NCBI GenBank assembly: GCA_964583975.1
Contig: CAZOXU010000003.1
Coordinates: forward strand, 7,805 to 71,804
Direction: 5' to 3'
Length of the DNA: 64,000 nt
Source: an uncultured Planctomycetales bacterium
GTDB lineage: Bacteria; Omnitrophota; Gorgyraeia; Zapsychrales; Fredricksoniimonadaceae
Numbering within the stretch: position 1 is the stretch's first letter; each line of letters begins with the position of its first letter. The position numbers and the translations under genes are program-made. A model generated the notes under the pieces. It was given only the letters and a program-made list of their open reading frames with translations, was not told the origin of the DNA and did no database searches. Below, one piece after another: positions 22,544-64,000 of the stretch.

Positions 22544-22553
22544 ACCGCATTTA

Positions 22554-23007: not shown

Positions 23008-23367
23008 CTACGCTTCCTTCGGCCACCAGTGGCTTCTGATTTGATCTGCACAAGTTCTGGATAAATACTGACTGATTTCTTGCTTATCATCATCTTTGAT
23101 TCTACTAAATTCCATACCATAAAAATAACGTCCTTCAATTTCTTTATTCCAACGCACCTGGGCTTGAATATTTAGAACAAGATCGTCTTTTAAGTCTAAC
23201 AGCACATCAAACACATAAGCATCAGGTAATGGTTCTTTAGAGGAAATCTTAATTCCTTTTAAATTCATGTCCTCAATACAGCATTTTCGTTCCCATTCAT
23301 GTTCTCTTATTTTCATTTTTGCTTTTTCACCTATTTGCCAACGGGGGATTTGGCGAAGTTCAGTCAT
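23008..23367 (-). CDS. PilZ-domain-like protein (c-di-GMP binding family)
   Basis: 119 aa. RxxxR-like IPRWQIGEK and D/NxSxxG-like EDMNLKGIKI motifs in the right order and spacing. Confidence 0.4.
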   Translation of the reverse strand: MTELRQIPRWQIGEKAKMKIREHEWERKCCIEDMNLKGIKISSKEPLPDAYVFDVLLDLKDDLVLNIQAQVRWNKEIEGRYFYGMEFSRIKDDDKQEISQYLSRTCADQIRSHWWPKEA

Positions 23368-38400: not shown

Positions 38401-41400
38401 GATCAGCCCGTAACACTGAATCATTGTTCTTTAAAAAGAAATCGGGTTGTTCAATTAAATCAGCGAGTTCTTCAACAGCGCTTTTCTTGTGCAAATGCTT
38501 CATACCACGCTGGCGCACCAGGAAGCTAGTAATTTCACTAGCCAAGAAATCTAAATCTTTTTTACTTAATTCCAGACTATTAAGCTCAATAAAGTTACGT
38601 TGCACAGTTTCATCTCCTGGAGCGTGTAAAAATCTTTCTTTAAATCCTTTTCTTAACTTCAAAAGCTTTAATCTTAAATTCTGCAAGCGTTGATCCCACT
38701 TATAATCCGGCCACAGTTCGTACAGATTACGTAAAACTTTTCCTTTTTTCGATGAATAAAACAATAGCAGCGGCACCAAGTAATCTTCGACATTGTGATA
38801 TCCGATTTGTTCGCCCAAATCTACCAACACCGCTCGACCATCTCTTAGATTACTATCAAAGAATTTCTGAGGAATATGCAGCTCATCAAACATAATAAAG
38901 GATTGCTCAAGCATTTGCTTTGCTACCTTCCCTATCTCTGGAGCCCTCCACACCTCTGGATACTTCATAACAACATTTCCACGATGGAGATCATATGGTG
39001 CGACAAAATCTTTTGTTTTTCCCTTATTTAATTCAAAGAAAACATTCATCAGAAGAACAAACACTTTATCGGCAAAAACCGGATCGATGTATTTAGTCTT
39101 TTGAATTTCTCGAATAGGTCGTCCATCAATTAATTGTTCTAATGAGACAATATAATGAGGCCCTTGGATAGGTTGAGTGCGGACCTTTCCAAATTTACCT
39201 TTTTTCTTCTTCTCGACGTAAATAACCTTTGAGATTCTGGGAACTAAGCCACTGTGTTCCAGTCTTTGGTGGGCCTCGAGCTCTCCTGGCTCATACAATG
39301 GCAAACCACGCCTTACGTCAGTTTTAATTAAAAGTTCAAATGTATAGTTCAAACCCTGATCATTCCGTAAAGTAACTGCATAAACGTCTTTGCGCATTCC
39401 GTACCCATGTAACCCCAGACCAACATATACAGTTCCCATAATATTAGGATTCTGCAGAATACTTTCGAGACGATCTTGGAAAACACCACGACCAAACTGA
39501 AGAATATGTGTAACTAACTCTAGAGCAAGGCTAGTGTCTTTTGTAACGTCTTTTAGGTCGATATCCCTAACAATTTTGAAACTGCCTATCGGGCGGGGTT
39601 CATCTGGAGGCTGACCTTTAGACTCCTCCGCCCCGATGTAATCTGTTAAAGGAAGATCGGTAAGCAATTTATTTGGCTCATTCCAAACATTTTTATCCCA
39701 CGATGTTGCATGCAGCCTGCCATTCTGAAATGTCATAACATAAATCCTCTGCAATAATTTAGGCGCATGATTTTTTAAAAACTCGACTATAAAATAAACT
39801 TGAAAATACGGATGCCCATCAATGACTCGCACATTTCGCAGTTCGTTTGAATAGATATATTTATAAAATCGGCGTGCAAGATCATCGGATACTTTCATCA
39901 ATATCTTAAATACACAGTTTCGGCAATTACGCCACTCTTGCGAATCTTCCTCAGGTTCTAGATTATCACTCGTTGTTCTTATATCTAAATATCCGTCATC
40001 TAACAAATCCCCATCATATTCATCTGAGGTGATTGCAGCCGGGTTCGTGCTTCTTTCAACAACATCTATTGGCCGTATAATTAGGTAAGGTTTTTCTATA
40101 GAATTATTATTGAGTAAACGAACAACTAAACTTTCAATCAATTCAAGTCCTAAGAATAAGATAAAAAGTATGAACCCTCCTATAACATAGGTAGAAAGGA
40201 CAAATTGGAAAGGAAAGATCGATGGGGGAAGAGGTTCCAAATATATCCAATCGTTCAATATGCTCAATACAACAATACTTATCGCTACAGGTTCTGCCTG
40301 TATCTTTTTACCCCAAATAAGAAACAAGCTAGATATAACTCCCACAATAGCTATAGGTAAAACCATGTTGGGCCATATCCAGAAAACTCTTTCAGGGACA
40401 GTGACCAAAACGATGTTTTCACTACGAAAATCTATGAGTTTATCAGTCCCTAGAACTATGGCCCCTACTAATAACGATTGAATAGTCGCAATAATGAGGC
40501 GATGTAAAATCTTAAGATCCTTGATACTCTTTTCAACATGAAATGTGTTAAGGAATGCTTGCCACCACAAATTAACCTTCCAGGGGAATAGTTGCGGCAC
40601 GCCACTTTGCTGATAGATGTGATAAGCTAGACCGAAACGCTTACCAAGCTCCTTTTCTTCTTGAATCGTGTGATAATAAGTCTGTATGACCGCAACAAGA
40701 CATAGAGCAAATAATAATACATTAGGATATATTAAAACCATCGACCCCATCATCAACGTCTGTAAGAAATATTGTGGATGGCGCACTAGTTGATATGGTC
40801 CATAGGTGATCGGTTGACCTTTATCAATACGCATTCCTTCTTGGCGGGTTTTTGAAAACCATCGATTAAGTTTTACTAAGGCTGCTGTACTTAAAACCAT
40901 TAACGACATGCCAATAGTAAAGGTGCTCCAATTAAATCCTTGTAAAATTCCTAGACTGGAAGATTTTTCTAACGGCAAAGCCATTAAAATCCCACTCGAC
41001 ACTTTTTGGTTTCTGTCCGGCGGGCCGCGCTGTGAGGCAGAATCCCCTACCCCTGTCAAACCAGAATAACTTCTATGTGTAATTCTTCTTTTTAATACCG
41101 CTAGAATAGAGACCTTTAAAGCCCTCCATGTAATTAGGGCCATTAATCCCAAAGACCAATGTTGAATTTCGAAATTGTTGCACCTGATGATTTGCTGCAA
41201 CATTCTTCTTATTTCAGAAGAATCAGAAATGGTTGAACTTTTAAACTCTACCTTTGTTGCAAAAATTCCAAGCACTCCTGGTTTCCTTCTTAAGAGTGAC
41301 TCGGGCAGGCGTTCCGGAAAGAATTTTTTCCAAAGAGGACGGTATCCAAAAATTGCCATGTCACCTTTGAGTATATTAAAAATCTGAGGAAGCTCGTCTA

Positions 41401-44400
41401 ACCCTGTCTTACGTAAAAATCTACCTATTCGTGTAGCTTGTCCTTTTCGTGGGCCTTTTTGAATCAAGGTAATAAATTTGTATATCTTAAATTTTTTCCC
41501 CAACAAACCTACTCGTCTTTGGGTAAAGAGGATCTTCTTTTCTTCGGAAAATACGAGGATGGAAACAGCAACAACAATCATCAATGGAAGTATAAAAATA
41601 AAAGCTATGCTACCAACGATTAAATCAAACGCCCGCATATTCAAAGGTTGCAAGTGTTCTAAAAACCAACGCCTAGCTTGTTTTAATTGAGAGAATGCGA
41701 AGAAATATAAATAAAGCAAACCTGCCCCTACTCCATAAGCCAAGATATCAAACCAATCAAAAACCATTCCCATATCATTTGGTTCACGAAAAGACGTCAG
41801 AGGCATTAAAACTTCAATGAGGCTACTTATAAATAGTGAAAGCAAGGTTATTTGTACTGCAGAAAGTTTTACATCAAGAATCCAATCCCACAAATATATC
41901 ACCATAGCAAGTAAGAACGGTAAAGAAACATCTGGCAATGAACCATTGAGGATGCCATCTACTTGTGTAATTTCAAAATTACTCTGGCGAAAATTCATAC
42001 CCCAAGCAGAGAGCCACAAGAATAATCCTGACAACAAGAAAAGTTCAATGAATTTATTCAGCCAATCTTTTCTGTGCGGATGCGCATATCTTGCAATAAT
42101 TCCCCAAAGAATCACAATTCCCAAAATTGCCCAAGTGGAACCCTCAAGATCAATGACATAAAAATATTCCTGAGCCAAAGCATTGCTTAAGATAAATCCT
42201 AGCAAGAGCATTAAACTTACGATTCCTACAAGAAAAACAACCGAAACAGATCCGACTTCAGCACAGCGATCTGTCGACTGAAGCCTGGCAATTGTCCTTT
42301 TAATCCACCAAACTCTTAGAAATGCCGGAGGATGTGATGTTTGCAAAATGTTTTCTTTGAAATAATTTCCTATCGTATCGGTTACATCGTAACCTGCTTC
42401 ATAAGCATAGGTAGCTCCCCAATAATCCGCCCTTAACTCCTTAAACCAACAGACCAACAATTCAGCGAAAACGATAGGAATCAATAAAACAATAGGGATC
42501 CCTAAATACCAAGCTATCATTGAAGCTAACGGAACGAGGAAAGGAAACGGAATAAGTGCTTGAGACATGTTACGAACAATTTTAAAGAATCTGTTTTCTT
42601 GCAAAGCATTGTTTCTAAAAGCGGTTTCTCTGAGATGAGCAATTTCATGGCCAAAAACAAAAGCATGATCTTTCTCACCCCTTTGCTTCATGTCATCTTG
42701 ATCCAGGGTAATTAATGCAGGTATACAATAATAAATCTGACTTCGTTGACCATAGCCTAATACGAATGGTACTTCTTCCAGGGGTTGATACGCCTTTGCT
42801 GCAGCATGTACGTTATCAAATATTCTTAAGATTGTTTGATCCTCAATGACTTCATATGTAGATGGGTTCTTAGATTTGAATGGATAAAAGAAACATCGTG
42901 CAGCGGCATACACAGCCATGCCGACCATGATTAAATCGTCAACCACAGAAAGCAGAACTATTTGGAAGCCCATGGCGATCCCTAATGACATGGATGGGAT
43001 AAGACGAATGTCTATCTTATTTTTATAGTACCTCTGTGTAAGCTTCGTCAGCAAAAATATCACAATACCGTAGGCAAACACATAAAAAATAAAATGAGGA
43101 TGGCGTTCTTGAAATGTTTGAGAAGATTTAAAGGTAGCCTTTATTGCAGACCACCGATTTACTAAATGCGCAGGAACATTTATGAGAAATTCTTCAACTT
43201 GCGGTTTGATTTTAACGATGAGATCTTTGAAGCTATTTAATTGTTGCTGAGTAATATCAGCATTCAATTTATTAATATACTGCGCTAGAAATGTTCTTAT
43301 CGCATCGCTATGCGCGAAACCACCAAACCCAACCGAAGCTTTCCTTCTAACATCAAAGAATGGATTGTTAGGATAAATTTCTTCTGTTGGCCAATTTAAA
43401 GGAAACTTTTTAAAGAACTCATCCCAAGTTAACCGTAATAAACCAACCCACTCATATGTTTGCTCTTCCTTTACTCTAAAAACAGGGGACCCGCTATCAC
43501 CACAAAACACAACCAGCGTTGAGAAATAAACTAATTTATGATATGTTTCATCGGTATGAGCTTGATCGAGAACAAATCCTTCAGGTAATTGTTTTTCTTC
43601 TTTGGCCATGACCCGACCATAACGTCCTTCCAAAAGAGAATCAGAAGGAATATGGATCCTACCCCACACTAAATTATTGGATATTAAATCAAACTCATAC
43701 GACTTAGATCTCAAATTCTTGATGGCTAGGGCAGCATCTGAATCCGCGATTTGATAAAATAAAACGATCGGATCTTCATCTTTAACCTTAGGTGCCAAGG
43801 AAAATGTGATACCCTTTGGCATAGGAACATCGTCTTGTGTTCGTAATAAAGACAGATCTCCTTGGGCTTTATCAAACTCATTAACTACTACAAACGTATG
43901 CCAGTCGTTCTTATCCGTACTGCCACGTTTTTTCTGCTGAACTAATTTAAAATCCTTCTCACATTTAGAGCAGACAACATGATACTCCGTTAGAAAAAGA
44001 TTATCAGCTATTTGAACGGCCCTACCTATTGAATATTCTGAATCAACATCATAAAGCAGCCCGCTAATATCAGCTTGGGTAAGTGAGTCTTGAGAATTTA
44101 AGATGCTTTGTAAATCTCGCAAATGGGATTGTTTTTGTCTAAGAGTTAAAGTAATCGCAGGTGCAGCAGCACTTTCAATCTGTGCTGATCTTCCCATCAT
44201 TGGTGGATGCTGAGCAAAAGCTGGAGCTGAAGCAAAACAAAGAACGGTCAAAACCCCTAGCCAGGCTTGACGCAAAGCATTATTGGTAGTACCCTTAATT
44301 ATATGATTAAACCATCTGCAGGTTACGTCTCTAATATCAAAAAAGCCATTGCTAAACTTCCCCCGAAAGAACGTGTTCAATTGATTGACTCTTTGCAAAG

Positions 44401-47400
44401 AGAAAGTTGGGCTCAAAGATTTAAGCAGCTTCTCAAACGCATCAATGCCCGCTTTGCCAAACATCCCCTGTCTGCTAAAGAGCTCAATAAAATTATTGAA
44501 GACGCTCGGGAAGAATATCATGCTAAAGGCAGTCGTTGATACTAATGTCCTCGTTAGTTCGCTTCTAAAAGGTACGACTGCTAGAAATATCATCGCCACA
44601 CTCACCCTCAATAAATTTACTCTTGTACTCAGCGAAGATATTTTTGAAGAGATTGTATTTACCTTACGAAAACCTCGATTAGCAGAATTTATTCCTGAAT
44701 CAGATATAATTGTGCTGTTTGCGTTACTGCACCAACGTAGTTTATTTGTTAAACCGAGCAACATTGTTAACATTTGCAGAGACAAGAAAGATAATAAGTT
44801 CCTGTCTTGCGCTTTAGCGGCTAAAGCTGACGTTATCGTCAGCGGAGATAAAGATCTGCTCGTGCTTAATCCCTTCGAAGGTATTGCAATTATTTCTCCT
44901 ACAGAATTTCTGATCATGCTGTACAAGGTTTGAATCCGAACTATCGCTTTTTTATTCCATGGCGTCCAGTCTTTGAGTGGAACAATGAAGGTTCCCAGAA
45001 ATGGACCAAACAAACGCCAAAGGTAAGCTTCTTCATATAAGAAAACAACCTGGCCTGACCAATTCAAATGAACAGCTTTGGGAGGAATTGCCCCTAAATT
45101 TTGTTTAAACCGTATAGGAGAAACAAGACAGAAGAATATAAAATGCACCATATATAAGCCAAAAAATATAAAAGCAAAATGTCCTACTATCGGTAAATAA
45201 AAATTAGTGAGGAATAAAACCATTAGTGATGGCAAGGCAATTATAAGACTTGCAAATTTATTGATCATTAAAAGAGCAAAAATCCAAGTGTCGTTATATT
45301 TAGATGGATTTTGCTTAAGATATTCCCCCCATGAAAGCGATCTAGTAGGCACATTTCTCTTCTCCCAAATCATCCAATAGACTGTTAACAGCGATAATGC
45401 CATTCCCAATGTAGTAAAGCCCACCGTGCTTCCACTAGCTACCAAAGCCGCTGATCCAATAATTCCTATTGGCAGAGCTGCGAATGTAAAACCACCTTGG
45501 GTTGATTGAGGGGTTGGATCTTTTTGAAGGTTTTGGACAGTCGGTCTTTGGGTCCATTGTTTTAATTTATTCCAGACAAGTGAAGCTCTAGCCTGCCGCA
45601 AGGCACCTTCCACCCTTTCTTTTAAATGTTCCAGCAACAGTCTGACATAAAGCTCCTCAGGGTGTTGAACAGCAGCTAATTTCACAGTATTAATCAAATA
45701 ATCTTCAACCACGCTCGAAGCATCGATCTTACCGATCAGAAGATTTGCTTCATCTAAACGGCGCAAAACCTTGCCCACTAAAAGTTCTCTGTTCTCTGGA
45801 TTTTGATCTACTTCCTCTAAGCGGCGCTGGGCGACATCAAGCAATTGCTCAGCCCAAGTTAAACGATTTTCATCAGAAGATCGTATCTCCTGCCGAGCTA
45901 AATCAAGCAAGGCCCCATGTTGCAAAGCAATCCCAGCATTGGCAATTTTTACCGAGTTGATATTGGCGCTTAATAAATGACTTGGTGTAATGAAAGAAAT
46001 GTCTGCTTTTCTAGTGAAACGTGTGTAATTCGAATATGAAAAAACACTAACTGGAAGATCAAGATCGTAAACGCCTTTAGGTTCTTTCATTGCTCCATCA
46101 ACAACAATGACTAGATCTAAATCCGGAGGGAATTCACGGAAACCATAAATATAGCTTCCCAAAACATAAATACTCCACACTTTCACATTAGGACCGATAT
46201 GTTTATAAGCCATGTCTTGAGCCCATTTGACAAGCACATCAGAATTAATACTATTAAGTCTCTCCACAAAAATAGTCTTGGCCCCGTCACTAAATGGGCC
46301 GTAAATAGTTTGGTTGATCTGTTGCAAATATTCCGGGGGCATCAAACGTTTAAAACGAGGATCTAATACCATCGGTTTAAATTGCCTTTGCCGTCGAGAT
46401 ATCCAAGTTAATTCAGATAACTGCGCAAGTGTCAAGTCATAGCGCCTGGCCAACAAACTTCGTACTTTTTGTACAGAAAGTCCACTATTACCCGATGCCT
46501 GCTCCCGACCCACTAAAATGGCAGCGACACTACGCAAATCTCCTTCAGTCAGCCAGAAAATCAGTTCATCATTAATTCTTGTGGTTAGGGCTGGATTATC
46601 TAATGTTGTTCCAGCTAAACCATGAAGAAGTGAAATAGCTATTTCACCTGGTGATTTACGACGAGATCGATAAAGAAATCCTAGAACTTTATCAAGATCT
46701 CTTTCAAGAAACGATTTTGGAAAATCTAAATACGCTGGGAATGTAAGAAATTCTTTGGTGTGCGAAGAGTTGCGCAAAAATTCTTTGATCTTACGTGTGA
46801 TGCGGACAATCCAAAACCAGTGTCTAGAGAATTCAAAACGGGATGAGTTATCTTCAATCAATTTAAACTTTGCTGTTCTCCAACCAATCCAATGCGCCAA
46901 CCAACTCACAAGACTTCCAATACGATGTTGGAAAATAATGCTTAAGAAGATTGCAAGAATGAGCACGGCATCAACTAATCGTGTGGATATTCCCAGAAAA
47001 GGTGCCGACAGCCCACTGAAGAATCCACCAATACCAAGGACCGTCAAAATCTTAGAAACAACTCTATTGTGAGAATCCTGGGAATCTGCTTTTTGCAAAA
47101 ATTCACTCATACTATCATCGGTGCGGATCCATATATCTAAAGAATCAACACCTTCGGTCAGTACGAATGTTACACTTACATTATTGTGTTCTTCATTAAT
47201 ATAATAGTTGACCCATGGCGGGATGTAACTCTCTCCATTGATAAGAATCACTGGCAGACCTTTAGGATCAGAACGAGGTTGATCTTCTTTTACTACCTGC
47301 CCCACATAACTTATTTTAAGGTCTAAATGATGCCTATCTTTTCTATCTATAACAAACAGATTAAGTTCGCCGTCTTTGTCTAAATAAAACACCCCTTCAT

Positions 47401-50400
47401 TATATGGATTGATGGCACACCCAATGGTTTGCCGTTTCTCTAAATGAATCGTGGTCCTAGCTAAACCTTTAGAAGAAGCCTGTAATTTGATTGTCTTAAG
47501 ATGCGGCTTGGGACGCTGTAAAATTCTTTGCTGCAACATTCCCGATTCAAAATCAATAATAGAACCTCGTCCCCACAAATAGGACAAAGTAATTTCCCAA
47601 TAAATAAATAATAAGTTGTGTGCATAAACGATAGCCCAGACATACTTGGTACACCCCGTAAAGAAATCTACGAAGAATAAAAAGTTTAATACAAGCACAA
47701 TAGAGGCATTGGCCATTACTCCCACAAGCGCTTTAAGACCATGGACCTTCCAGGGCATACCATGAAATAAACCAACCCCGATTCGCTTCCAACCATAATC
47801 ACTGCGTCGCCCATTTTCTGGCCCCACAACAAACTGTGCTAAATGATTTGGAATAAGGGCTGCTATAAATAAAATCTGTATGGTAAAAATTTGTAGGGAA
47901 CTTGAATTTCCTAACATCATAGGTAGATTAGCGACCATGGAGGTAGCTTGTTTCCTATTGCGTCGAGTCTTCACTGAAAACCAAGCATACACAACTAAGA
48001 AAATAAGCCATCCCCAAATCCATACTTCAGCCCAATTCCTTACTAACCAATCCCATAAGTTACTTCCCCATCCAGCTGATGCCAAAACGGTTATACCAAC
48101 GATCCCCAAAGGTAGGGCTGCAAATATAAAAACATGCATTTTAAGATAATATCTCAATAAATATAGGCTTAATGCTGCAACGCTAAGCAGGATAATGCTA
48201 GTATTGCTCCAGAAATTATTGCCATCTGCTTCAAGCAATCCTACCCAGGCCTTCTCAGGATTAGGAACTTGCTTAATATCTATATATTGGCTTTTTTCTT
48301 TGGAACTCAGTGCGGCGTACTCTTGTGGGGCAATTAAATGATAAATAAATTGACCATCCTCTGTTTTAAATTCAGTAAGCTTGACGTATTTGAGTTGATC
48401 TTTTAAACCACTTTGACTCTCCATCCACTGAATAACTGCTTGTATCTGTTCAACATGCTGATTAAGAGCGTGCACAAATTTACGCGCACCCATTTTATTT
48501 AAAATCTCATGTCGTTTTTGGTTTTGGTTCTCTAGCCCAAAGACCGTAACGTACCTATCTACGCACATGGGTAAAGATAAACGTGGAGTTAAAGCTATAA
48601 ACCTAGCAGGATCCATCGACAAAGACCTGGCTGCATCCGCATTTAACGGCAGGATTATTGATATTTGGCTTGCCCTTCTTGGCTCGCTTACAATATGAAG
48701 CTTTCCTTGATATAAAAACTCCGCAACCATTCGGGCCGCTTGCAAACCAGTTCCAGCACCATAAGCAAAACCCTGAGCCATTTGTCCTCTAAAGCCATAA
48801 TTCCCTAAACTCAATTTTTCATTCTGGTCAATCCCAATGCCAGTATCTGCAACTGTAATAATTACAATTCCATCATGTTTTTGTAAGCTAATGGCAACTG
48901 TTGAATTTACTAAAGAATATTTAATGGCATTGTGAATCACTTCTCCAATTACAACGTCCTTTAAATTAAGTTCGCCATCTTTAGATTTGATAAAAATCTT
49001 CTGATCAGGAAGATCCATCTTTAAAGTGATGTTTTTGCTTTTAGCAAAGCCTCCTAGATACGTCCCTTGAACCAATTGCATAATCAATTCATTTAAATCC
49101 AAGAGGTTTTCTGTAATATCGCAAGCCGTGCTAGTGGCTGTGACTTTGGACTGATTAAAATTAGCGCCTGACACTAGTTTTTCTGGTTCTTCACTCTTTA
49201 CAAACGGCTTAAACGATAAATACTTCATAGCCCAGAATGTCAAGACAGCCGAAGCGATATGGACCCAGAAATTAATGTATAAACTTTCACCTTCAAGGAT
49301 TCGAGTGCGGAAATTGTCCTTGGTCTTACCCATCTCAACCAAATTAGCCAAGATCCACAGGAAGCTAGCAACGCTCAAACGGATCATCAGTGAACGTCGT
49401 TTTGATTGCTTATCCGTTCCATTAAGGTTTAAATCTTTGCCCTTACGCATAAACCCGAACACAGATATAAGATAGAAATATCCGGTAAGGGCTGGAATAC
49501 TTAAAATCCTTAAATACTGTGCATTAAACTGACTCCACAAGCTTCCATCAGCATCCATACGTTTAAAATAACGGAGGAAACTGTTATTAATGAGATCCCA
49601 ATTACCAACGATATCTTTGCGAATAATAACAAGAATGGTTAAGGCTATAGCAGAAACGAAAGAAATTACCGTTGGCCAATAAATAAACGGACGTGTTTTT
49701 ATCAAAGACTGCTTCTGATAGAACTGTTTATAAAATACATACCCACCTAAGACAACAGCATCCAAAGCCAACATGACAAACATCAGATTCTCATAAATAA
49801 ACGGCCTAGCAATGGTGGATATTGGGGTCACCAACCACGTTATTGTAGTTAGAATGCCCAGCAATGCCATTCGTAGAGCCCAAGGCATCTTTAAAATTTG
49901 CGGTTCTTTGTAATCTACAGATTTTTGTGCTAGAAACACACTACGAATACGGCGAACATGTGGAGCATCAATTTCCTCACGCTTAACTTCCCGATGGATC
50001 GCCTGAATATTTTCAAAACCAATCTTCTTTAGCATTCCTGGAATTCGTCTGGCAGATTGACGATTGGTGCGGCTTACCCAACGTGGCGGAAGAATATTGG
50101 TGATAATAATCCATCCGCCGGGCTTCAATTCATTAAACGCATGGCGATAAGCCGCTCTTACTCTTGACCAACGTTCAAACCAAATGTATTTAAGCCAATT
50201 AAAAAGCTCTACTACAGGCCCTTCAATAGAATGATATAGGTTTGTATTAATGAGCTGCAACCATGACAGTGGATCATTCCATCGTGGCTGTGCATTCCAA
50301 GCTACAAAATCACTGACTCGATGAAACACAACAGCATTACTGCCTGGATATTCTTCTTTAGGAAACCAACGTTTTTGGGTAGCTACATCAATACCAGTCC

Positions 50401-53400
50401 ATCCATACTGGATTTCAGTATCATCAGTACCAAATAATCCATCGTCCCATCTTTCCGTTCTATACTCAAATGCCACATGACGATGCTCGCTAGCCCCTGC
50501 AGCCTTCAAACCTCGGTAAGGCGAACCATTTTGCCCTGCTCCAACTTCCGTGACTACCCCGCCATTGATCTGAATCTTCTGTCCAATCAATTCAAACAGA
50601 GCATCTTCATGTTCATTTCCACTGACACCTGTTGAAAATTCACCTAATAGCTCCTTTGCTTGAGCCAATTCTTCTTTACTCCATCCTTGATCTAAATCTG
50701 GACGAAGTTTGAAATCTTCAATTTGTCTAATGAGATACAAATCATTAAATAAATGAATGCCAATAACAATCAGAGCAGTAAGGCTAAAAGGTTGGGTGAT
50801 TAAAATATACGGTAATAATGGCAGGGCAAAACGAAGTGCAGAGATTATGTCATTCCCGAATGCTTTTATCGGGAATCTAGTGCCTGGATCCCCGATTAAG
50901 ACTTTCGGGGATGACAATAAGTTTCCTCTCTTCTCTATATAGACATGCCAATAACCGAGGCCTAAAGCAACCAGCGCAAAGGTTGCATAGGATAAGCCCC
51001 ATGGCAATGCTGCATTTAACCCAAGGGCGATAGCTACTAACGCTGGTGCCTCTAAGAACAAGACACTTAACAATCCAATGACTGGTTGTTGAATATAAAG
51101 ATACATTAAACTTGATGGCGCTTGGGGGGCCTCTCGAACAACAGTCTGTGCCGGAAGGTGGGCTGGCGCTGGTTTTTCTGCTTTAAAAACACTTTTAATA
51201 TATTTCAACACCCACATCAACGCTGTTGCAACAGCAATTCTCTTTTGCTTCTTAAACATTCTTAAGAATATTGCTGCTGATAACATGAGTGTTCGAATCA
51301 AGGTTTTTGGCATAATGACCAGAAACTTCAACTGACCCCAGACTCCTTTAAAATCTCCACCCTCTGTTATAAATTTCACAAGGCGCTTGAATTCTCTTGG
51401 ATAAAATTCTTTGGCTAATGACCAAATTAAGGAAGGTTGATTATTAAAATCTGCTTTGGTATCAGACAATTCATCAGAAATTTGTAAAAATAACATGAAA
51501 TCGTTTCCAAATTCGACGTCCTGTACTTTGTCCTGTGGAAAACGACCTGCAAAAATATTCTCTAATTCCAAAAGACCACCAAGACGCGTTTTCGCTTTTA
51601 GAATCTCCCACATTTTCTCTACAGTTGGATATAATCCGCTTTCTCGCTCTAGAATGTACGACTCAAATAATTCTTGTGAGACTCTAAGCAAAATATCGCG
51701 TAACTTCTTTGTATCAATTTCGTCCTGCGGCATTTGCACTAAAATCTGGTTGGCCTTGTTTTCAAAATCTTCAACAATCTCTGCTCGATCTCGTTTATCA
51801 TCTTTTGCAACCAATGGAGCTTCGATTTCCTGTAATTGCCTTTGAGTTACACCCTTACTTATTAAAAGACTAGATGGAATCACTGGGAATCGACAAAAAA
51901 GCCGAGACTCAGCAAGAATACCCTTCACTTCATCCAAAGATAATTTATGTCCGAATGTGTCTAAAACTACATCTCCTGTGCGCACATATTGGGTCCAAAG
52001 AATCATCAGTAAATCAAATCTAGACTGCTTCACTATATTTAAATCAACACTCAGCATTTTTACCGCAATATATCCAAAAATACGTGTGGTTGAGTTTACC
52101 TTAATTCCATAACCGCTCCCGTCTTGGGTATCTCTTTTACCATTCATCCAGATTTCTCTAATAAGTTTGAGAAAACTAAATCGACGATCTGAATTTTTCT
52201 GTATTAACCAAAACATGTAAACAAAGATACTAATTACTAAGAAGGCTATTGCGCCCCATACCCAATACCCTGAAAGAACAACCCATGGATAAGCTAACCA
52301 TACCCCAAATACCAAAATACCAACAGTTGTAAGGAATGCTGATAAGACATGCCCACTTTGCGCATTGTTTAACTCAACCCCATCGTTTGTTGCTGTCAAA
52401 TCATGGGCAGGTTGTTCTGGGGTTTCTGGCTTCTTGAGAATTAAGATTGTTGATTCTTTTATTAAGAATTTATACCCGAATTCCTTTTGGATAATTAATA
52501 GAGCCCGCTCTAACTGAGCAATCATCCGGATGACATAAAATTTATCAACCAGTTCCTGAAGTATTTTGTGTTTCTTTATTTCTAATTCTATGACCCCATG
52601 CTCTAAATATGGTAGAAGCACTTCATAAATATCATGCTTTTCTAATTCCGCTATCGACCCAGGTGCTTTTAAGCTTCCCTTTTTACGACGATCGGAAATC
52701 CATTCTTTAATATTAGCGATTTCCTCAATATCAAATAAAAGCGAGGGAGGTTCTTTCTTTGCTTTGGCAGGTCTACCGCCAAGTAAAGTTAAATTTAATT
52801 TCAAAGACTTTGCCCGAGAAAAGATAGCAGTAGGAGTAACACCAAAATATTTCGCTAATTGTGAAGCAGTGGGTGGTTGTTCTTTCGTACTAAATAATTT
52901 ATGTGCCTTACGGAATTTAGATACGGTCAACGTTTTTCTTCCAGGGCTTAACTTTAACCGCAATTGTTTTGCTTTGTTAATTACTTGCTTACCAGTGATC
53001 TTTAAAACTGTAGCCAATTCAAAAGCCGTAGGAGCTTTTGCGGATTTCATTAGTTTCTGATAGGTCTCTCTAAATTGTTTTTTCGACACCTTTTCAGTCT
53101 CAGACCTTAGTTTTAATCGAAGAGCATCCGCACGCTTCATAACGGCTCGGTACTTCAAACCAGTAGCTTTGGCTAATTCTCTTCCCGTTGGCAACCGAGC
53201 TCCATCTATCAAACTCCTATAAATAGCGCGGAATTGTTTCTTAGGCAAAACTTTACGCATCGGAGTCAGTTTTAATTTCAAGTCTTTGCTTCGTTGGCGC
53301 ACAACGTCTGGGGACAATTTAAGCTTCCTAGCCAATTCATCTTTATTTGGTTGCTTGCCTTGGCTTGATAAGTCTTTATAGGCAGCAATAATATCCTTAT

Positions 53401-56400
53401 TACTTATGACCTGTTTTTTGTCTCTTACAGGAAGCTGCAATTCATTTAGTCTTTTATTAACAGCTTGGCGGCTAATTGATAACTTATTCATTAGATCTCT
53501 TTTTGTTGGCAATCTTTCTCCAACGCGTAACTCTTGATAGGCTGAAATAAAAACTGATTTACTGACTAGGTAACGTTTAAATAATCTCTTAAATACTAAT
53601 AAATTATGCCGTACATGTACTTCGATGGCCGCCTCTAAGGCTAATTCTCGACTTTTTGTCTTCTGGAATACTTTTTGGAAGGCACGGTTTGTGCGGGTAA
53701 CCAAATCACGTAGTTGTTTTTTATCTGCTGCGGTCAAATCTTCAACAACAAGATTTTTCGGATCGATTTTCTTGTCCTTATGCAACGTTACTAGCGCATC
53801 TGGTGGCGGCAAATCAGTAGATTGACGAATGAATCTCTCTTCCTCCCTGGCGGCTTGGAAAATAAAATCTCTCACAGTACCTGTTTTTATAGCTTTAAGT
53901 AATCGGGGCAAGAATTCAATATTCATACCCGCAACAGCTGACTCACTCTTTAAAATTTCTTTTCTCTTCGCAAGAAGCTCTTTAAGCAATTGAAGTCTAG
54001 CAAGTCTGTTTTTTGCAGCAATTCTACTAGCTAAATCTGCTTGCGCTTGCCTTGCCATCTGACGTTCATGTTCTTCTTGAAGCTTTTGTGCCTTCTGCAA
54101 TTGGCGTTCAATGCGTTTAGATTCTTTTTCAATGGCAGAATCCTTTCTGGACTTTCTTTCCTTAGAATGCTTCTGCTGTGCTCTAGCCATTCGTCTGGCT
54201 TCTTTTTCTTGTGCGTCTTGCATTTTTTGTTGTTCTTTTTCTTTGCGCTTGGCTTCTTTTTGTTGTGCCTTCAGTATTTCTTGCTGTTGTTTTGCTAACT
54301 GACGAGCTTGTTTTTCTTGGGCAAGTCGTTCATTGCGGGCAATTGAAATTACCGATTTTGTGTGCATTTGCGAAGGAATATTTTGGGTTAAATTGATCAA
54401 TAGCCTCTTACCCTCGACATCTTTAATCGGATTACCCTCTGCATCAGCAATGAAAATAGCCCAGGTTCCAACGCCATTAACAAAACGCACATCAACTATG
54501 GAATCAGGATAATCACCAACGATCACTTCTATTCCAGCGAATTTAAGTCTTCTTCCTGTTAACTTTCGGTTAGGATAAATAAAATCTTTTAGAGTTTCTC
54601 TTAGATTAGTTCTGCCAATATCCGCTACCATTTCAACCAGTTCCCCTAAAACAAATGAATCAGGGGTTGTTGCAGGCTTTGGAGCATAAACAGGGTTTAA
54701 CTCTATGGCTCTGCCTGTGCTCAATGATACGGTTGTTTTAAATAATAGGCGCTTAGGTGTGACTTTAAGAATATTTTTAACAAGCACCCGGCCATTATTT
54801 TCACCAAAAAAGGCGATCGATTCTTTGCCGCCAAAAGTCAAATACCCAGCCCCATTCAATTTCTGACCATAAAATTCCATGTGCTTGGTTACCAAATGGT
54901 ATTCCTCATCAACAACGTAATTAAGATAGCAGGAAACAAATTTAGCTTTCTTGTTATCCCAAACCAAAGCAAAGCGTTCATTTAAATCAGATGTTAATGA
55001 CCAAATTTTAATAACTAAGCCATCTCTAAAATAAATAAGGACACGTTGATTTCTATAAGCTTCCAGGCGTCCCCAAGACTTTTGTTCTTGACGATTGGGC
55101 ATTGAACCATCTACCAACATGCGACCGCCGCCAAAACGTAGATTACCAATAGGATCAAGCTGCGTCTCCAATACGACATCACCAAAGCTCAAGAGCTTCT
55201 CACGTTGCAAGCTTCCAGCATAGACATGCAGCACCTTACCTGAGTAAGCTTGCATGATCCTAAAGAACGGATAAACCTTACCGGTTTTGGTCATCTTAAT
55301 TCTAACGGGTAAACCTTCAGACATTTCAAGTTCATAATTCTCGTTGCCATGCGCTGTAAACTTCCCTAAATATTTTCCTACGATAAGCTTACCGCTGAGC
55401 GTCAAACGTCCAGTAATGATCACATGCCCAAGCGCTTTAAGTTGATGCTCGGTTGGATTAGACGGTAAATTTCCTAAAGCAATCTTCTTTAATGAATTCT
55501 TCGTAGGCGTAACCCAAGGAGAGTTCTTGTTATGTCGAAGGGCCATTGCCTTCTTGATATCTTCCTCAAGAGCTTGATATTGAGGCAGATTGCCCGATAG
55601 ATCCTCAACCTTTAGCTTCTTAGCTGCCATCCCCATCATGCCCTTACCTTCTCGCCAAACGTTTAAGTTATGTTTCAAATGCACGATAATAGCGGCCAAA
55701 TAACCCCCAACCCAGAAACCTTTCAATCGCCCTATTTTATATGCTTCTGTTGCACGAGCGGCTAAGTCTGTAAGTTGCGTTAAACATTCGTTTTGTTCTG
55801 TGGCAGATAATTCATCGACTTTAACCCAACCTCTCTCAAAAATAAGCACTTCAGAATCATGGCCCTGTATAAATTTCAAATCTCCATTAATTGTATGTGC
55901 GCGCAACTCCTCTACTACGGCCGCCATCATCCAAATAAGAATACCGAGATTGTATCGACCAACGCCAACTCTTGATGCTAAATTGTATAACCACTTCCAG
56001 CGTGACTGCAGACCAGCGACATGACGTGGGCCATAATGCATCTTTGTCTGTGTATTAAATCTCAACCCTGCAATACTCATTAAAAAGAACGTTATTGCCA
56101 TCAAAATTAGGGATAGCGCCCTATTATTAGACGTAAATGTCATTCCCGAATGCTTTTGTCGGTAATCTAGAACCTGAGTGACTGGATCCCCGATAGAAAC
56201 TTTCGGGGATGACAATAATAGGGCGCTGTCCCCTATTTTTTGAATTACTTTCCCAATCGGTTTAGGATTATGTGTCCGATAAAAATTACGCAAACGTTCT
56301 ACGGTCCACTGGTAAGGAGATTGGATGAGCTCTACATCGATATTGGTTTTGAGTAATTGCAATAAACCTGGTCCAACTATATCATTATCAAAAATCAATA

Positions 56401-59400
56401 ATACCTCTATATGTCCAGCAGCTCCTTCAACTTCTACTGCAAATCTTTTATAGCTCACTTGGGCTTGCTCATCTTGTGCGATCTTAAATTCCCTGGCGTC
56501 TTGAGGGTCATTAATTCCTTGCCTTAATAAAGCGTATCGCTGCTCTTTTCCTTCTTGATCCTTGATGACTAAATAAGGTCTAACGCCAATCGGCTTGATC
56601 TTTATGAAATCAAATAAGAATCCTTCCCAAACTCCTTCGGCATAAGCATAGAATTTCTGGTCAAAAATGGTCTTTAGAATTCCTTCCTCGGGCATATTCT
56701 TACACGTAATAACCACTAATACTTCGTGCCCCTTGTTATCACCAACACGATACATGCTTTGATTGTCTGCAGTCTCTACCATCTCCAATAAACCCCCACT
56801 ATTTTCGACAATGAACATGCCCACCTTGCTGAAATATTGGAAGTTTAATTCATCCATTAGTTGACGGAATCTTGGATATTTCTTAGCATCATCCCCCACC
56901 AAAATATCTATTAGTTCACCGAGCTTTTCAGCCAAATCAACAGAACTTTCCTTAGCTAAATCAATTAAATCATCACGCAATTTTTGGACTGTTGCCAAAT
57001 CTTCATTGACTTTACTTATTTGCTTGGAAAGTTCCTCTTGGGCAGCCAGCGATGCTTGCACGGCTTTTTCATAATCTTCTCCCGCATGGCCTTCGGCTGC
57101 CAGATGCTTGGCCTTATCTAATTTCTTATGTGCTTCTTTTTCTAATTCTTTAGCTTTGGTGAAACTTACTGAGGGGTTTTTAAACATTCGGAAATCTTTT
57201 ACCAACTTATCAACGAGTTTGACTACTTGAGCAGCTCGCTCATGGTAGGCAATGATGTCTTTGATTTCTGTGGAATCATAAGGAACCCGGCCAAAACTCA
57301 AACGGCGGGAAATGGCCTCAGGTGCTGAGCAAGCACTTAAGAAAAATGCAAAAAATAGGCTAATCAATGCCATCAGACTCCAAGGCATTGATCCAGATTG
57401 TGCTGATGCTTGGGCTTCTTTAACAGTATGGGCTTTTAATTTTTGCCACACCATGCTCGCACGAGTGAAGACCAGAGCAATTTTTAAATCTTGATAATAC
57501 GCTTCTAAGATTTCACGGATTTGTTCATCAGAATAATATCCATCTAAATATCGAATGGTTTCACTGAAATAGAGATGTTTTATAGCTGGTAGAAGCAAAG
57601 CTGAAGATGGGTCAATGCCTATGAGAAGAAGGTTTGCTTCCATCATCCGACGAGCTGATTTCGAACGCAAGGTCAAAAAATCACCTTCATCGCTTGTTGG
57701 GTTTTCTTTCGTGATACTCATAGCACTCTTCGCATCCTTAAGAAGCTCCGCTGCCGTGACCACATTATTATCAGAATGTTTGCGAATTCCCGTCATCGGC
57801 CAATCTCGCAGACCGTCTGCTTTTAAGAAAACACCAACATTAGCGATGATGGTTAAATGATGGGTTTTCTTTGCCAATGACTCAGCAGTCATAAAAAGAA
57901 TGTCCGCACGAGATGTATGCAAGGCATACTCACCATTAAAAATTCTCCTGTTTAATGGCATAATTCTTACTTTTAGGGTGTCTTGTAAATTAATCCCTTC
58001 AACAATGACTTCAATATCAAGATCTGCTGGAGATTGTTTAAACCCATAAACAAAACTTCCTACCAAAATAATACTAACGATACGGCCTTGGCGATTGGTA
58101 TGTTTATACAGCTCTTGGGTCAACATTTCTCTTAAAGCTTCTACATCAATCATTTCAACGCGTTTAACAAATTCAGCAATTTGTTGATTGTCCATTCTTC
58201 CATAAATCGTACGTTGTCTGATTTGCTCTGAATAAGAGGGCGACGGTCCAGCTTCTGCAAATTCTTCTAATAAGCGAACATATTCTAATTGGGTCAGTTT
58301 ACTAAAGGCCGGAGATTTAACCCATTTCATTAATGAACGAATTTCGTCACGGCGTTTCTTGTTAACGTTTTTATCATCAGATTTTACAAGTTGAACGTAA
58401 TAATCTTGCACCATAGGCACATAAGATTGGGCTCCTTCCCCTTGTGATGCTCCGGCGATGATAACCGCCCAGGCACGCCAATTATTCATTCGTAACCAAG
58501 CTATTAATTCTTTCTTGATTTGACCATTGATTGATTCATCTTCAACAAAGCTATAGCTTAAGCGGAAAAGGTCTTGCAACCTTGCATCGGTAGCTAAAAA
58601 TCCGAATCGACGGGCACGTTGCAATTTTTTAAGGAGTTTAGGAATCTCTTTAACTTTGAAAGCTTGTAGATTTTCAGGATATTTTGCTCCACCCAAGAAT
58701 AATCTTGTTTCAGATGATAAATGACGCCAATTATCAAGTAGTTGTTTGAGCTTGTGCACTATTCCAGTTATTTGGTAAATAGTAATTATGACAACCGTCA
58801 GTATCCCAATGTCAATTAATGCATAAAGGACACCTTTCATTCCTTCTGCCTTTTGCAAGATAAGGAAAAATGAACTTTCAAGTAGTGTGGCTGCTAGAAA
58901 CAATAGTACTGCTGGGACAGAAATCATGGCGCGAACCTTAGGTAAACTAAAATACGGTCGTTCTTCGCGAAGCAGAATGTCGATTTGCTCATCAGGATTA
59001 ACTAGTACTACCGTCACCTTATTTTTTGGTTCCAGATATAGCTGAAATAGGTTTGGAATATGTTCCCCTTTCACCTGAGCAACGGGAACATAATCACCTG
59101 TTGTCCCCTGATTACTTGGCACAGTAAAATCAATTCTTCGTCCTTCATGGGGAATGACAAATGGCGTCTCAGTATCAAATTTAATACCCTCACCTAAATC
59201 GCGATATTCCTGCATCACACATAATTGTCCTGCTTGATTAAAATAGACAATTACGTCATTTTTGTGGTTAATCAAACGAATTCTCAGGGTTTCTTTCCTA
59301 TTGAGATTAATGCGATAAATACTCGCTGGAAATTCCTGAACGCGCACCTGAAGGGCATCGAAAGTTAATGCAGCACTTGATTTTCTTCTAGGATGTCCTG

Positions 59401-62400
59401 GTTCATATGGAACTCGATAAGTAATAACACCTTCTTTATTAATGATTTCAGTAGGTATTTGGGAAGCTGCAAATCTAATCCATGTACCTCTTCGGGGAGA
59501 AAATTCTGTGACAGCCACATCTTGAGGATCAATGGACAAGCGTTGTTCTTCATAACGCATCGAGAGTTTTTGTTGATACCAATCTCCTAAGAAATTAATT
59601 AAATCACCTTCGTTACTGTAGACAGCTATCAAAACTTCAAAGACAATCATGCCAAGATTTAAGGCTGCCAAAAACTCTGCTAATCGAGGCGCAATAACAC
59701 CTTTCGATAGAACATCAATAATAATAGCAGCCAATATATTACCCATAAACCCGGCTAGGGCCCGTATGCCCTTAGTTTCCCACGGCATGCCGTAGAACAA
59801 CCCTTTTAAAATGCGCCCAACGCCATAATCACGTCTGCGTCCTTGATCGGGTCCGGCAATCAAGTGGCCAAGTTCGTGAGGAATAATAGCTGGGCTCAAA
59901 ACAATTCGTGCAATCCAATTCCCCCACCAACCACGACCTATATGCTCAAATAAACTGGCTGCTAGCGATGGTGTCGGTGCCAAAGAAGTATTAGAAGCAG
60001 CGGCAGACCGAGTTTCAGGTTTTTTTAGAATTTTCACCTCAAGTTGGGTTACTTCAAACTCATACCCATGTCTTTGCTGAATAATCCCTAGAGCCTTCTG
60101 TAATTGGGGATAATTACGAATTATAAGGAATTGATCTCGCAACATATTAAGTATGCTGCTTTTTAACGTTTCTACCGGCATTCTTTCTACGTACATCAAA
60201 AGAAGCTCAATATCATGTTCTTCTAATTCCAGTAGTGAACCTTCAACCTTCAAGCTGCCCTTATTCCTACGATAATCAATCCAATATTCAATATCAGGAA
60301 CTTCTGACGCTTCAAATAAGAGTGAAGCTGTACTGCTTATAGGTTCTTTAGCAACAACAGTGGTGCTTAGAAGAGAATCTGTTGCATGGGGCTTAATCTC
60401 AGGAACAAGGATTTTAGTTACATATTGTTTCATCTTCAGCCTAGTTTTTCTTTTGGGTATAACAATTGGCTTAGGCTGCTGCTTAGGCAGAACCACAGAT
60501 TCTTGACCTTTTAATCGCAAAACTAATCCCAGAACCTTGCTACGAACGCGTACAGCTTTAATTTTCATTCGTAATTTATCAGCGAGTTGACGGGCTGAAG
60601 GGGGAACTCCTTTGTTTTGTATCATCAAACGCTTATAGGCCATGCCAAAAGACTTTCGCGAAACTTCTTTTCTAGAAAGGCGTAATTTCAAGCCTAATAA
60701 ATTGGCTCTGCGACGAACCCTGACTTCAGTGATCTTAAGTTCTTCGCCCATGGCTTTAGGCGTAGGGTATCTATTCTTTTGGGACTTTAACCGTGTATAA
60801 ACCTCTTTATATTTCTCGTCAGAGACATGATTTCTAGCTGGACGAAGTCTTATTCCTAACGCTTTATAGCGTTGCATAAAGGATTCATATGATAGGACAA
60901 GCGCTCTGGCCATCTGTCGTCCGGTTGGAAGCTGTCCTTTGTGTGTTTTCTTAAATATCCTGTATGCACGTTTTATTTCCTTGTCTGAGACTGTCTTTTT
61001 TAAAGGTTTGAGTTTTAAATTCAATGCTCTGCTTTTCTTACCTACCCATTCTTGAGACATTGTAAGGATCTTCGCCAGCTGAATAGAAGTAGGCGCTCTG
61101 CCCTTATGTCGTCGTTTGAATTCACGGTAAGCAGCTCTGAAATCTTTTGCTTTAACTGGAGACCGTCTTTTTCCACCTAACTTTAATTTGAGTTCTTTGG
61201 CTTTGCGGGATGCTGCCTTGTGTGTCATGCCAACCGAATCAGCCAGTTGCTTTAAAGTGGGGATGCTCTTACCCTTCGACAATGCACGATAAGAGGTTAG
61301 AAATTCTTTCTTGGTAACTCTATGTTTGAAAGCTAAATAATTGTATTTGGCATGAACTTGAATAGCTGCTTCAAGGGCTTGTTGGCGATTATTGGTCTTT
61401 TGGAAAACTTTCTGGAAGGCACAATTGGTTCGCTGAACTATTTTAAGTAATTGTTTTCGATTAGTAAATGTCAGTGCTTGGATTTGCAACGACTTTGGAT
61501 TAATTTTGCGGCCTTGATGCAATTTAATCAACGCATCAGGGGGCGGCAGATTCGTTCTTCGACGAATAAACGTCTCTTCTGTCCTGGCTTCTTGAAGCAG
61601 AAACTCTCTTAATTTACCCGCTGCCATGGCTTCTTTCAGCTGAGGCAAACGTAAGGGATTTAAACCAAGCGCAACTGCTTGACTATCTCTATCTACATTA
61701 AACTGAATAATTTCTGCACCGCCAGTCTCATCTAGATCTTCAACATCATCATTCATTCGAGAAGCTCCACGCAAAACAGTGTCCAGCAATGAGGCATCTT
61801 GATTAGAATCTTCCTCTTCTTGACCTTTTAAAAAGTATTCTTTTAATTTTCGTAATGCTCGATCTTCAAGCTGCTGGATCCGTGATCGTCGAATTTCTGG
61901 ATAAAATCTCTCGCTGATTTGTTTAAAAGTTAATGGATGGGTTCTAAAATACCTTAAGAAAATAATATTAGCTTCCCTCTCACTTAAAATCTGAAAAAGC
62001 CTTCTCTTCCAGGCACTATTCAAGTCTTCTAAATCACTTCGCACAAAATCATCCTTACTTCGAGGGTCTGCCACACGATCTTCAAAGCCCCTATGATCGC
62101 CTTTATTATCCATCCAGCCTTTATCTGAAAATAATTTCACCCTTTGGCGTTCTTTACGAGACTTAGTAATGACTTCATTAAATTCCTTACGAATCCACCA
62201 TTCTGCATAGGCTGCAAAACCACTGTTTTTCTTTAACATCTCTAGGTCGCTAGCTTTTTGGGAGGCTCGAAACAGTCCTAGATTACCTGCTAGAATCAAT
62301 TCCATGCTCGAGATTCCAACACGATAAGCACTAGCAAAATATCCATATTTATTAGCGATATAAATGACATACGGAAGGTTGGCATTAACCAAACGAGTAA

Positions 62401-64000: not shown

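Follow-up and report, generated by a model that had tools for sequence, protein, structure and literature searches.

Organization of the Locus

The window studied here, a 64,000-nucleotide stretch analysed as a whole, comes from an uncultured Planctomycetales bacterium that GTDB places in the Omnitrophota (assembly GCA_964583975.1, contig CAZOXU010000003.1, positions 7,805 to 71,804). On its minus strand lies a giant open reading frame (ORF) of 13,519 amino acids (aa), which is predicted to encode a multi-pass membrane protein, and in whose N-terminal part a module of the sigma-70 family, hereafter the sigma cassette, was recognized. The cassette looks like a whole sigma factor gene that has been joined, in frame, to the gene of a giant multi-pass membrane protein with many enzyme domains. 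It is followed by a module (A) that has a paralogue further downstream (B), and each of these modules holds an array of helix-turn-helix (HTH) repeats. The coordinates are provided in Table 1.

The reading frame is free of stop codons over 40.5 kb, in a gene with a guanine plus cytosine (G+C) content of 39%, and 58 hydrophobic segments were found in it by a Kyte-Doolittle scan. The 30 nucleotides upstream of its ATG at 63970 (63971-64000) show neither an in-frame stop codon nor an obvious Shine-Dalgarno sequence, and the true start could in principle lie beyond the end of the window. The first hydrophobic segment is preceded by no lysine or arginine in 14 aa and followed by three in 15 aa, and hydropathy revealed no other segment before the pair that ends the N-terminal soluble block. 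On account of this positive-inside count, and since both the sigma cassette and a very basic HTH array lie within it, we infer from hydropathy and charge that the block of about 1370 aa between these segments (aa 34-1403) is cytoplasmic. Six strong hydrophobic segments separate modules A and B, an even number that is consistent with both basic arrays being on one side of the membrane. The sequence-only reading had described the sigma domain as flanked by transmembrane segments; such segments exist, but they are distant, with spacers of about 450 aa on the N-terminal side and about 690 aa on the C-terminal side.

Independent evidence of coding in the same frame was obtained on both sides of the cassette, from homologues in the case of the N-terminal repeats and from a paralogue and an external homologue in that of module A, which supports a single polypeptide. 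Promoter-like and terminator-like sites inside the giant gene occurred at chance level, and a separate sigma gene with its own promoter and terminator was rejected on these counts. In addition, the cassette is internal to the stop-free ORF and no start or promoter signal above chance was found around it, so that it does not stand out as an independent subunit.

Table 1. Features of the giant ORF and of its N-terminal block.
Feature	Residues (aa)	Position in the window	Strand	Basis or remarks
Giant ORF	1-13,519	23411..63970	-	Multi-pass membrane protein
First hydrophobic segment	15-33	63872..63928	-	Hydropathy; probable N-terminal membrane anchor
Three tandem repeats of ~125 aa (N-rep)	~60-435	62666..63793	-	Self-comparison; no Pfam match
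Lys/Glu-rich linker	436-468		-	N-terminal flank of the sigma cassette
Sigma-70-family cassette	469-719	61814..62566	-	Profiles, PDB match, AlphaFold/Foldseek, alignment to compact sigma factors
Region 1.2	469-507	62450..62566	-	FAIYLKQ...LSREEELSLAQRIREG; 11-aa insertion
Region 2.1-2.4	520-604	62159..62413	-	Alignment to Taq SigA; two insertions, 6 and 4 aa
Linker in place of region 3.0/3.1/3.2	605-650 (~45 aa)	62021..62158	-	Low-confidence model
Region 4	651-715	61826..62020	-	Sigma70_r4; recognition helix R694-R695-S696-R697-I698-Q699-Q700
Acidic linker	716-762	61685..61825	-	Net charge -12; between sigma cassette and module A
Conserved ~120-aa domain opening module A	763-884	61319..61684	-	52% identical to aa 3342-3468
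Array A, five tandem basic HTH repeats of ~53 aa	885-1157	60500..61318	-	Net charge +59
Conserved tail of module A	1208-1329	59984..60349	-	46% identical to aa 3739-3859
Next hydrophobic pair	1404-1443	59642..59761	-	Ends N-terminal soluble block
Paralogous module B	3342-3900	52271..53947	-	Self-comparison; no sigma cassette
Array B, five HTH repeats in module B	3469-3732	52775-53566	-	Net charge +45
HATPase_c	5007-5110		-	Pfam
Peptidase_M48 (HtpX-like)	7098-7221	42308..42679	-	Pfam; HEIAH at aa 7108
Bac_transf	7446-7620		-	Pfam
PEMT/ICMT	7687-7780		-	Pfam
S-adenosylmethionine (SAM) methyltransferase	~8541-8666		-	Domain scan
NTP_transferase	10661-10775		-	Pfam
His_Phos_1	13268-13438		-	Pfam

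Identification of the Sigma Cassette

The sequence-only reading had placed a sigma-70-family domain at 61830-62510, which corresponds to aa 488-714 of the giant ORF, and its presence in a giant membrane protein was confirmed by several lines of evidence. The NCBIfam model of the sigma-70 superfamily (TIGR02937) scored 56.7 bits, above its cut-off of 42.9, and matched over profile positions 2-164 of 165. Pfam bore out region 4 (Sigma70_r4, aa 660-711, 37.3 bits with a cut-off of 24.1) but not region 2, for which Sigma70_r2 reached only 14.6 bits with a cut-off of 24, probably because of the two insertions in this region. Sigma70_r1_2 was borderline at aa 489-507, with 20.8-21.0 or 23.7 bits in separate scans and a cut-off of 22, and the region 1.2 motif LSREEELSLAQRIREG is plain by eye. 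A custom profile, for which 30 related sigma factors were used, gave the profile matches to regions 2 and 4 on which the earlier claim depended, as aa 486-605 scored 80.0 bits and aa 624-719 scored 42.8 bits. No second cassette was revealed by this profile in the 13,519 aa.

The best match in a sequence search of the PDB was Thermus SigA (E 2e-12), and 61 sigma chains were found below E 0.01. The AlphaFold model of the cassette had a mean predicted local distance difference test (pLDDT) value of 71.6, with confident sigma-2 and sigma-4 domains and a disordered linker, and when it was compared with the PDB using Foldseek all of the top 50 matches were sigma factors, with a probability of 1.00. 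By the criteria of sequence and predicted fold, aa 469-719 are a bona fide sigma-70-family module at the superfamily level, for which binding of core RNA polymerase and promoter-specific initiation are the predicted functions.

With respect to its class, all equivalog sigma models scored far below their cut-offs, and the best specific models were of the RpoD/RpoH/RpoS type and not specific to extracytoplasmic function (ECF) factors. Region 3 is missing: region 2 is joined to region 4 by a linker of about 45 aa, and positions 120-186 of the custom profile are skipped in the alignment. Judged on its sequence, the cassette therefore fails the region-3 criterion of sigma groups 1-3. It shares the two-domain build (sigma-2 and sigma-4) of ECF factors but is not clearly one of them either, since region 1.2 also appears to be present and the best specific matches are RpoD/RpoH/RpoS-like. 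The model of MzaA, an anti-phage sigma factor, was considered and rejected, with 52 bits against a cut-off of 800 and with higher scores for the nearest ordinary sigma factors.

The cassette aligns in one stretch (aa ~485-716) with 22 free-standing sigma factors of 205-260 aa that have no region 3, at 24-32% identity. This alignment indicates that it is a complete compact sigma factor from the N- to the C-terminus and not a fragment. Both this completeness and the absence of region 3 from its usual place had been overlooked in the sequence-only reading.

Residue Conservation and Predicted Promoter Recognition

Alignment to Taq SigA, together with the profiles, upheld the recognition of regions 2.1-2.4 and 4.2, including the WWIR motif (aa 591-594). 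In region 2 the kept residues are N531, G562-N563, Y588, W591, W592 and R594, so that the Y..WWIR pattern is preserved, and Y588, W591 and W592 correspond to Taq Y253, W256 and W257 (Escherichia coli Y430, W433 and W434), the aromatic residues of region 2.3 involved in promoter melting. The roles assigned here to individual residues come from structural work on sigma-A/−10 and sigma-4/−35 complexes. For the −10-recognition residues, whose conservation had been left as a question, the result was divided: the aromatic melting residues are kept, but most of those that form the group-1 A(−11) pocket are replaced (F242 to A573, E243 to S574, R246 to K581, F248 to S583 and K249 to G584, in Taq sigma-A numbering), as are the −12 contacts (Q260 to K595 and R264 to E599). 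In region 4, R695, R697 and Q700 preserve E. coli R584, R586 and Q589, while K593 is R704, E585 is S696 and R588 is Q699. These changes in the −12, −10-pocket and −35 contacts would imply a promoter specificity unlike that of the housekeeping sigma factor.

The pair that in sigma-70 (Q406/E407) contacts the beta-prime coiled coil is also changed, Taq Q229 and E230 corresponding to L560 and A561. It must be noted that an alanine at the second position of this pair is also seen in several of the closest free-standing sigma factors. Over the 33 columns conserved in at least 75% of the 22 free-standing compact factors, the cassette keeps 28 (85%), and the free-standing factors themselves keep 66-97% when each is left out in turn. 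The cassette is apparently not decayed, as it retains the melting aromatics, the G-N motif for core binding and most of the DNA contacts in region 4, and its residue pattern is that of an alternative sigma factor with its own promoter specificity and not that of a wreck.

HTH Arrays and Paralogous Modules

The giant polypeptide contains ten basic HTH units, five in each array. The sequence-only reading had described the repeats after the sigma domain as region-4-like; the array of five is real, but its profile affinity is to region 3. A profile of the ten repeats matched region 3 of sigma-F in the PDB (1l0o_C aa 115-147, E 6e-4) and of HrdB/SigA, with other HTH proteins also listed, and in an hhalign comparison with the profile of 30 whole sigma factors the repeat fell on columns 141-175 of 296, that is, on region 3.0/3.1 (87.9%, E 3.3e-6). 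The best Pfam match on array A was Sigma70_r3, below threshold (22.9 bits; cut-off 25.3). AlphaFold modelled one repeat as a confident three-helix HTH (pLDDT 82.6), whose Foldseek matches were non-significant and generic, and the fold alone does not discriminate among HTH classes. The repeats thus resemble region 3 and not region 4 in their sequence profiles, on which alone this assignment is made, and the basic arrays most likely bind DNA.

An arrangement of the same kind was found in P0033, a protein of 705 aa with 12 repeats that is named 'DNA-directed RNA polymerase specialized sigma subunit' by IMG. Like arrays A and B it consists of units of about 55 aa set head to tail, each with a helix, the motif G-R-x-P-T/S and a helix-turn-helix, which match the region-3 columns of the sigma profile. 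P0033 is a stand-alone array, whereas in the giant protein two five-unit arrays are part of a membrane protein and one of them lies beside the sigma cassette.

Modules A and B (aa 763-1359 and aa 3342-3900) are 33-46% identical, depending on the BLAST piece. The earlier observation that module B has no sigma domain was correct: neither Pfam nor the custom sigma profile gave any sigma signal in aa 2641-3341, the roughly 700 aa that precede it. The conclusion drawn from it, that the sigma domain behaves as an inserted cassette, is undemonstrated. The homology between A and B begins at aa 763, and what B lacks is the whole block of aa 34-762, N-terminal repeats and sigma cassette together. Neither the G+C content of the cassette (0.383) nor its G+C content at third codon positions (0.30) nor its codon usage departs by more than one standard deviation from the values for the rest of the gene, and no meaningful flanking repeats were found. 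A recent insertion is thus given no support by these data, and the difference could equally well have arisen by gain in A or by loss in B.

The domain that opens module A is 40% identical to a 240-aa ENA fragment (P0035). Its copy in module B is encoded at 53567-53947 (minus strand), and the core motif is LPPPDAL..LH..KI.P. A similarity of aa 763-884 to the N-terminus of the kleisin ScpA came from one PDB match (6ivh_A, E 0.01), had no Pfam support and was set aside as a weak lead.

Distribution of Relatives

No close relative of the cassette was found. When 5.8 billion proteins were searched by means of a word index, ordinary sigma factors were all that was returned, in partial alignments with at most 37% identity; no matches were obtained with a longer query (aa 470-1360), with the N-terminal repeats or with the conserved module domain, and scans of genome and metagenome contigs for relatives of the cassette also found nothing. 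In an exhaustive search of 1.84 billion representatives, sigma-type matches occurred only in proteins of 134-729 aa. None of the 22 matches to long proteins had a sigma domain except P0075, which is an ordinary RpoD-type factor of 729 aa.

The N-terminal repeats do have relatives in other long proteins of up to 7,822 aa (P0015-P0034), with two to seven copies in each, and the two that are named, P0015 and P0017, come from metagenome-assembled genomes of Candidatus Omnitrophota. In P0037 this domain precedes an HTH, and in P0017 it precedes a stretch that appears region-4-like by eye.

Comparison with Known Systems

Compact sigma factors of 205-260 aa (for example P0038, P0046, P0061 and P0080) are built like the cassette, with region 1.2, region 2, a short linker and region 4, and share its conserved positions; some of these factors without region 3 bear the IMG name 'RNA polymerase primary sigma factor'. 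Such factors are soluble proteins in their own right, whereas the cassette is preceded by about 470 aa, is followed by about 12,800 aa and has extra insertions in regions 1.2 and 2.

In Bacillus, pro-sigma-K and pro-sigma-E are membrane-associated precursors that become active after cleavage, with SpoIVFB and SpoIIGA, respectively. The logic proposed below for the cassette is similar, as an inactive membrane-associated precursor would give an active sigma factor on cleavage. Pro-sigma factors carry only a short N-terminal pro-sequence, however, and the cassette could not be assigned to them: it scored 43.0 and 34.4 bits for SigK and 33 bits for SigE, far below cut-offs of 252-339. BldN of Streptomyces has also been mentioned as a pro-sigma factor (PMC7826278).

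The nearest architectural precedent, by analogy, is given by ECF factors with fused transmembrane extensions. Fused C-terminal extensions have been described in several ECF factors, among them ECF263, whose transmembrane helices number five or seven, and a regulatory role was proposed for the extension (PMC7826278). As in the cassette, sigma-2 and sigma-4 are covalently joined to membrane-spanning sequence in this type (PMC7826278). Proteins of the ECF263 type are short and extended only at the C-terminus, whereas the cassette is flanked on both sides, appears to have region 1.2 and is part of a giant multi-enzyme partner.

The giant protein itself recalls the multi-enzyme, multi-transmembrane giants of the 'Archaeovorin' type in Omnitrophota (bioRxiv 10.1101/2023.11.21.568195) and the 'class 1 multi-enzyme' long proteins of this phylum, about 80% of which are reported to be sequence singletons and which are mosaics of hundreds of Pfam families (bioRxiv 10.64898/2026.06.07.730766). 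Like them, it is longer than 10,000 aa, has many predicted transmembrane helices, is tiled with transferase, methyltransferase, peptidase and HATPase_c domains, contains modules that are paralogous to each other and is an orphan in sequence, and its N-terminal repeats are shared with Omnitrophota proteins. It differs from them in that no SecA_DEAD or C39 domain was found by Pfam at E <= 0.01 over its whole length. Sigma-factor, HTH or DNA-binding domains are not mentioned in the main texts of either report (bioRxiv 10.1101/2023.11.21.568195; bioRxiv 10.64898/2026.06.07.730766). The cleavage of giant proteins into smaller polypeptides was raised by West-Roberts et al. as an untested suggestion (bioRxiv 10.1101/2023.11.21.568195).

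Proposed Function and Alternative Explanations

A compact sigma factor, apparently intact and encoded as a whole, would thus be held at the membrane, to be either released by proteolysis or active while tethered. The reading that we prefer, although tentatively and by analogy with the systems above, is that of membrane sequestration followed by proteolytic release at charged linkers. The cassette would sit in the cytoplasmic block of about 1370 aa, together with three repeats of an unknown domain and the basic array of five HTH units. Being built into a membrane protein, it would be kept away from free RNA polymerase, by a logic like that of a membrane anti-sigma factor or a pro-sigma factor. 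Cutting of the two charged linkers that border it (aa 436-468 and aa 716-762) would then activate it, the cutter being possibly the M48 domain of the same polypeptide, which is a candidate and no more, or a host protease. Its release would yield a sigma factor of about 250 aa able to steer core RNA polymerase to its own promoters.

Several observations weigh against this proposal. The giant protein yielded no identifiable anti-sigma domain, site-2 protease or cleavage motif. M50 and SpoIIGA had no match in aa 1-1800; an HELGH motif next to the membrane pair, at aa 1365, was considered as an M50 site-2 protease and discarded, as it has no Pfam M50 match and is not conserved in the paralogous segment, which reads NHLAQ. 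An anti-sigma kinase was likewise discarded, the HATPase_c domain being generic and HATPase_c_2 reaching only 11.9 bits. Within the cassette, region 2 falls below its Pfam threshold and the equivalents of Q406/E407 are L560/A561. In addition, the topology of the N-terminal block is derived from a hydropathy heuristic, and the N-terminus of the protein may lie outside the window. Finally, no relative of the cassette was found inside another long protein in any collection searched.

Three other explanations have to be weighed against release, and the four cannot be separated with the present data. The sigma cassette could act without ever being released, binding core RNA polymerase within the membrane protein and bringing transcription of particular genes to the membrane, in the way of membrane-bound activators such as ToxR or CadC, which we regard as unlikely. 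The basic HTH arrays would then hold the DNA, and the targets could include the 40-kb gene itself, the product of which has to be inserted co-translationally. The ends of sigma factors are solvent-exposed in holoenzyme structures and tolerate extensions, and group-1 sigma factors carry region 1.1 and a non-conserved region as N-terminal extensions. C-terminal extensions are found in ECF41/42 (PMC7826278). The long spacers to the membrane, the conserved melting residues, the ten basic HTH units in one polypeptide and the failure to find dedicated cleavage machinery beside the cassette would all suit a tethered factor. On the other hand, its short linker would have to thread the RNA exit channel with bulky domains on both flanks, and we know of no precedent for a working sigma factor that has a polytopic membrane protein continuing from both of its ends; moreover, the promoter region of the giant gene lies outside the window, which puts any autoregulatory site out of view. 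The replacement of the Q406/E407 pair, which also counts against release, and that of most of the group-1 A(−11) pocket would be expected if the sigma fold no longer bound RNA polymerase and, together with the HTH arrays, anchored DNA (the nucleoid) or a partner to the membrane complex. Such an exaptation would also fit the insertions that probably bring region 2 below its Pfam threshold, the position of the cassette among DNA-binding-type units with a net charge of +59 and, in the case of chromosome tethering, the borderline ScpA similarity of the next domain (E 0.01). It is made improbable by the conservation of 85% of the family positions, a value typical of free-standing sigma factors, which includes Y588, W591 and W592, residues that serve strand separation and would be needless for plain binding; the ScpA similarity, besides, lacks Pfam support.

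It is also conceivable that the cassette is a passenger with no selected role, brought by an accidental in-frame fusion into a fast-evolving mosaic gene, or that it reflects an assembly chimera. Its arrangement within a giant protein is a singleton in every collection searched, a singleton and mosaic nature is reported for long proteins of this kind (bioRxiv 10.64898/2026.06.07.730766), and the source genome was absent from these collections, so that no cross-check of the assembly was available. Nevertheless, the frame is open over 40.5 kb in a gene of 39% G+C, the composition of the cassette is fully ameliorated and its conserved positions are intact, while decay or toxicity would be expected of a sigma-like segment without a use; in a chimera, moreover, the join would have to keep the frame on both sides. 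We therefore give this explanation a low probability as well.

Less probable than any of the above is a more elaborate version in which the giant ORF would be a polyprotein or a membrane transcription platform. The cassette and the five region-3-like HTH units beside it would form a 'split' sigma factor, cut in cis or tethered, that would couple the synthesis and membrane insertion of the giant protein to the transcription of its own regulon.

Whatever its mode of action, the cassette appears to be a well-known domain in a setting without precedent, of which this is so far the only case, and its mechanism is one that we can only infer. It bears on the question of how bacterial proteins above 10,000 residues act, as single molecules or after being cut into working pieces. 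Since a sigma factor only makes sense if it reaches cytoplasmic RNA polymerase and DNA, an intact sigma module would be a built-in reporter in this regard: finding it free on RNA polymerase would show processing, and finding RNA polymerase at the membrane would reveal a new way of localizing transcription. The known modes of sigma regulation, by anti-sigma factors, pro-sequences and fused extensions, would be extended to full embedding in a polytopic membrane protein. Additionally, attention is drawn to an unstudied family of tandem region-3-like HTH arrays.

Other Features of the Giant Gene and Its Surroundings

Peptidase_M48 was the only recognizable protease domain of the giant polypeptide. 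Apart from modules A and B, several internal paralogies were detected. A segment of about 125 aa is present three times (aa 5123-5260, 10941-11065 and 12966-13099, encoded at 48191-48604, 30776-31150 and 24674-25075 of the minus strand) with 50-74% identity, far above the other internal paralogies, and it may be a recent duplicate or a strongly constrained unit. A second long pair (aa 1732-2198 and aa 5719-6156; 57377-58777 and 45503-46816, minus strand) is 28-31% identical and a short one (aa 1355-1399 and 5365-5409) 49% identical. By its sequence, the giant gene is an assembly of several duplicated supermodules. Far downstream there may be further units of DNA-binding type: an HTH_19 match was found at aa ~10055-10097, and the homing-endonuclease-associated HNH_repeat of Pfam scored exactly at threshold (26 bits) at aa 11366-11382, adjoining two internal repeats (aa 11059-11141 and aa 11237-11319) in a stretch encoded at ~29800-30800 of the minus strand (aa ~11059-11382).

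The remainder of the window is ordinary bacterial chromosome and includes genes for BioF, a BirA-like ligase, NifS/IscS, RlmN, AccA, an L,D-transpeptidase, YifB, MutS and MutL. The nearest relative of its MutS, at 58% identity, is labelled 'uncultured Planctomycetales', and all others have at most 46%. The contig that carries this relative (L001) was considered for synteny and rejected. At the syntenic position it contains a stop-free frame of at least 2,717 codons, convergent to mutL (14393-22547, minus strand), that has no similarity to the giant protein; being repetitive and devoid of hydrophobic or transmembrane segments, this frame probably shadows a repetitive gene that lies on the opposite strand.

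An ORF of 119 aa (23008-23367, minus strand) located 44 nucleotides past the stop codon of the giant gene encodes a PilZ domain (Pfam PilZ, 42.2 bits with a cut-off of 22.5). It is probably co-transcribed with the giant gene, and it hints at a link between cyclic di-GMP and the giant protein. A coiled-coil protein of 990 aa, with partial SMC/Rad50-like matches far below the family cut-offs, is encoded at 11420-14392 (minus strand); the giant gene has its C-terminal end 9 kb away, and the sigma cassette is at a distance of about 47 kb. Directly after yifB there is an ORF for an IS200-like Y1 transposase (10892-11353, plus strand; Pfam Y1_Tnp, 29.6 bits).

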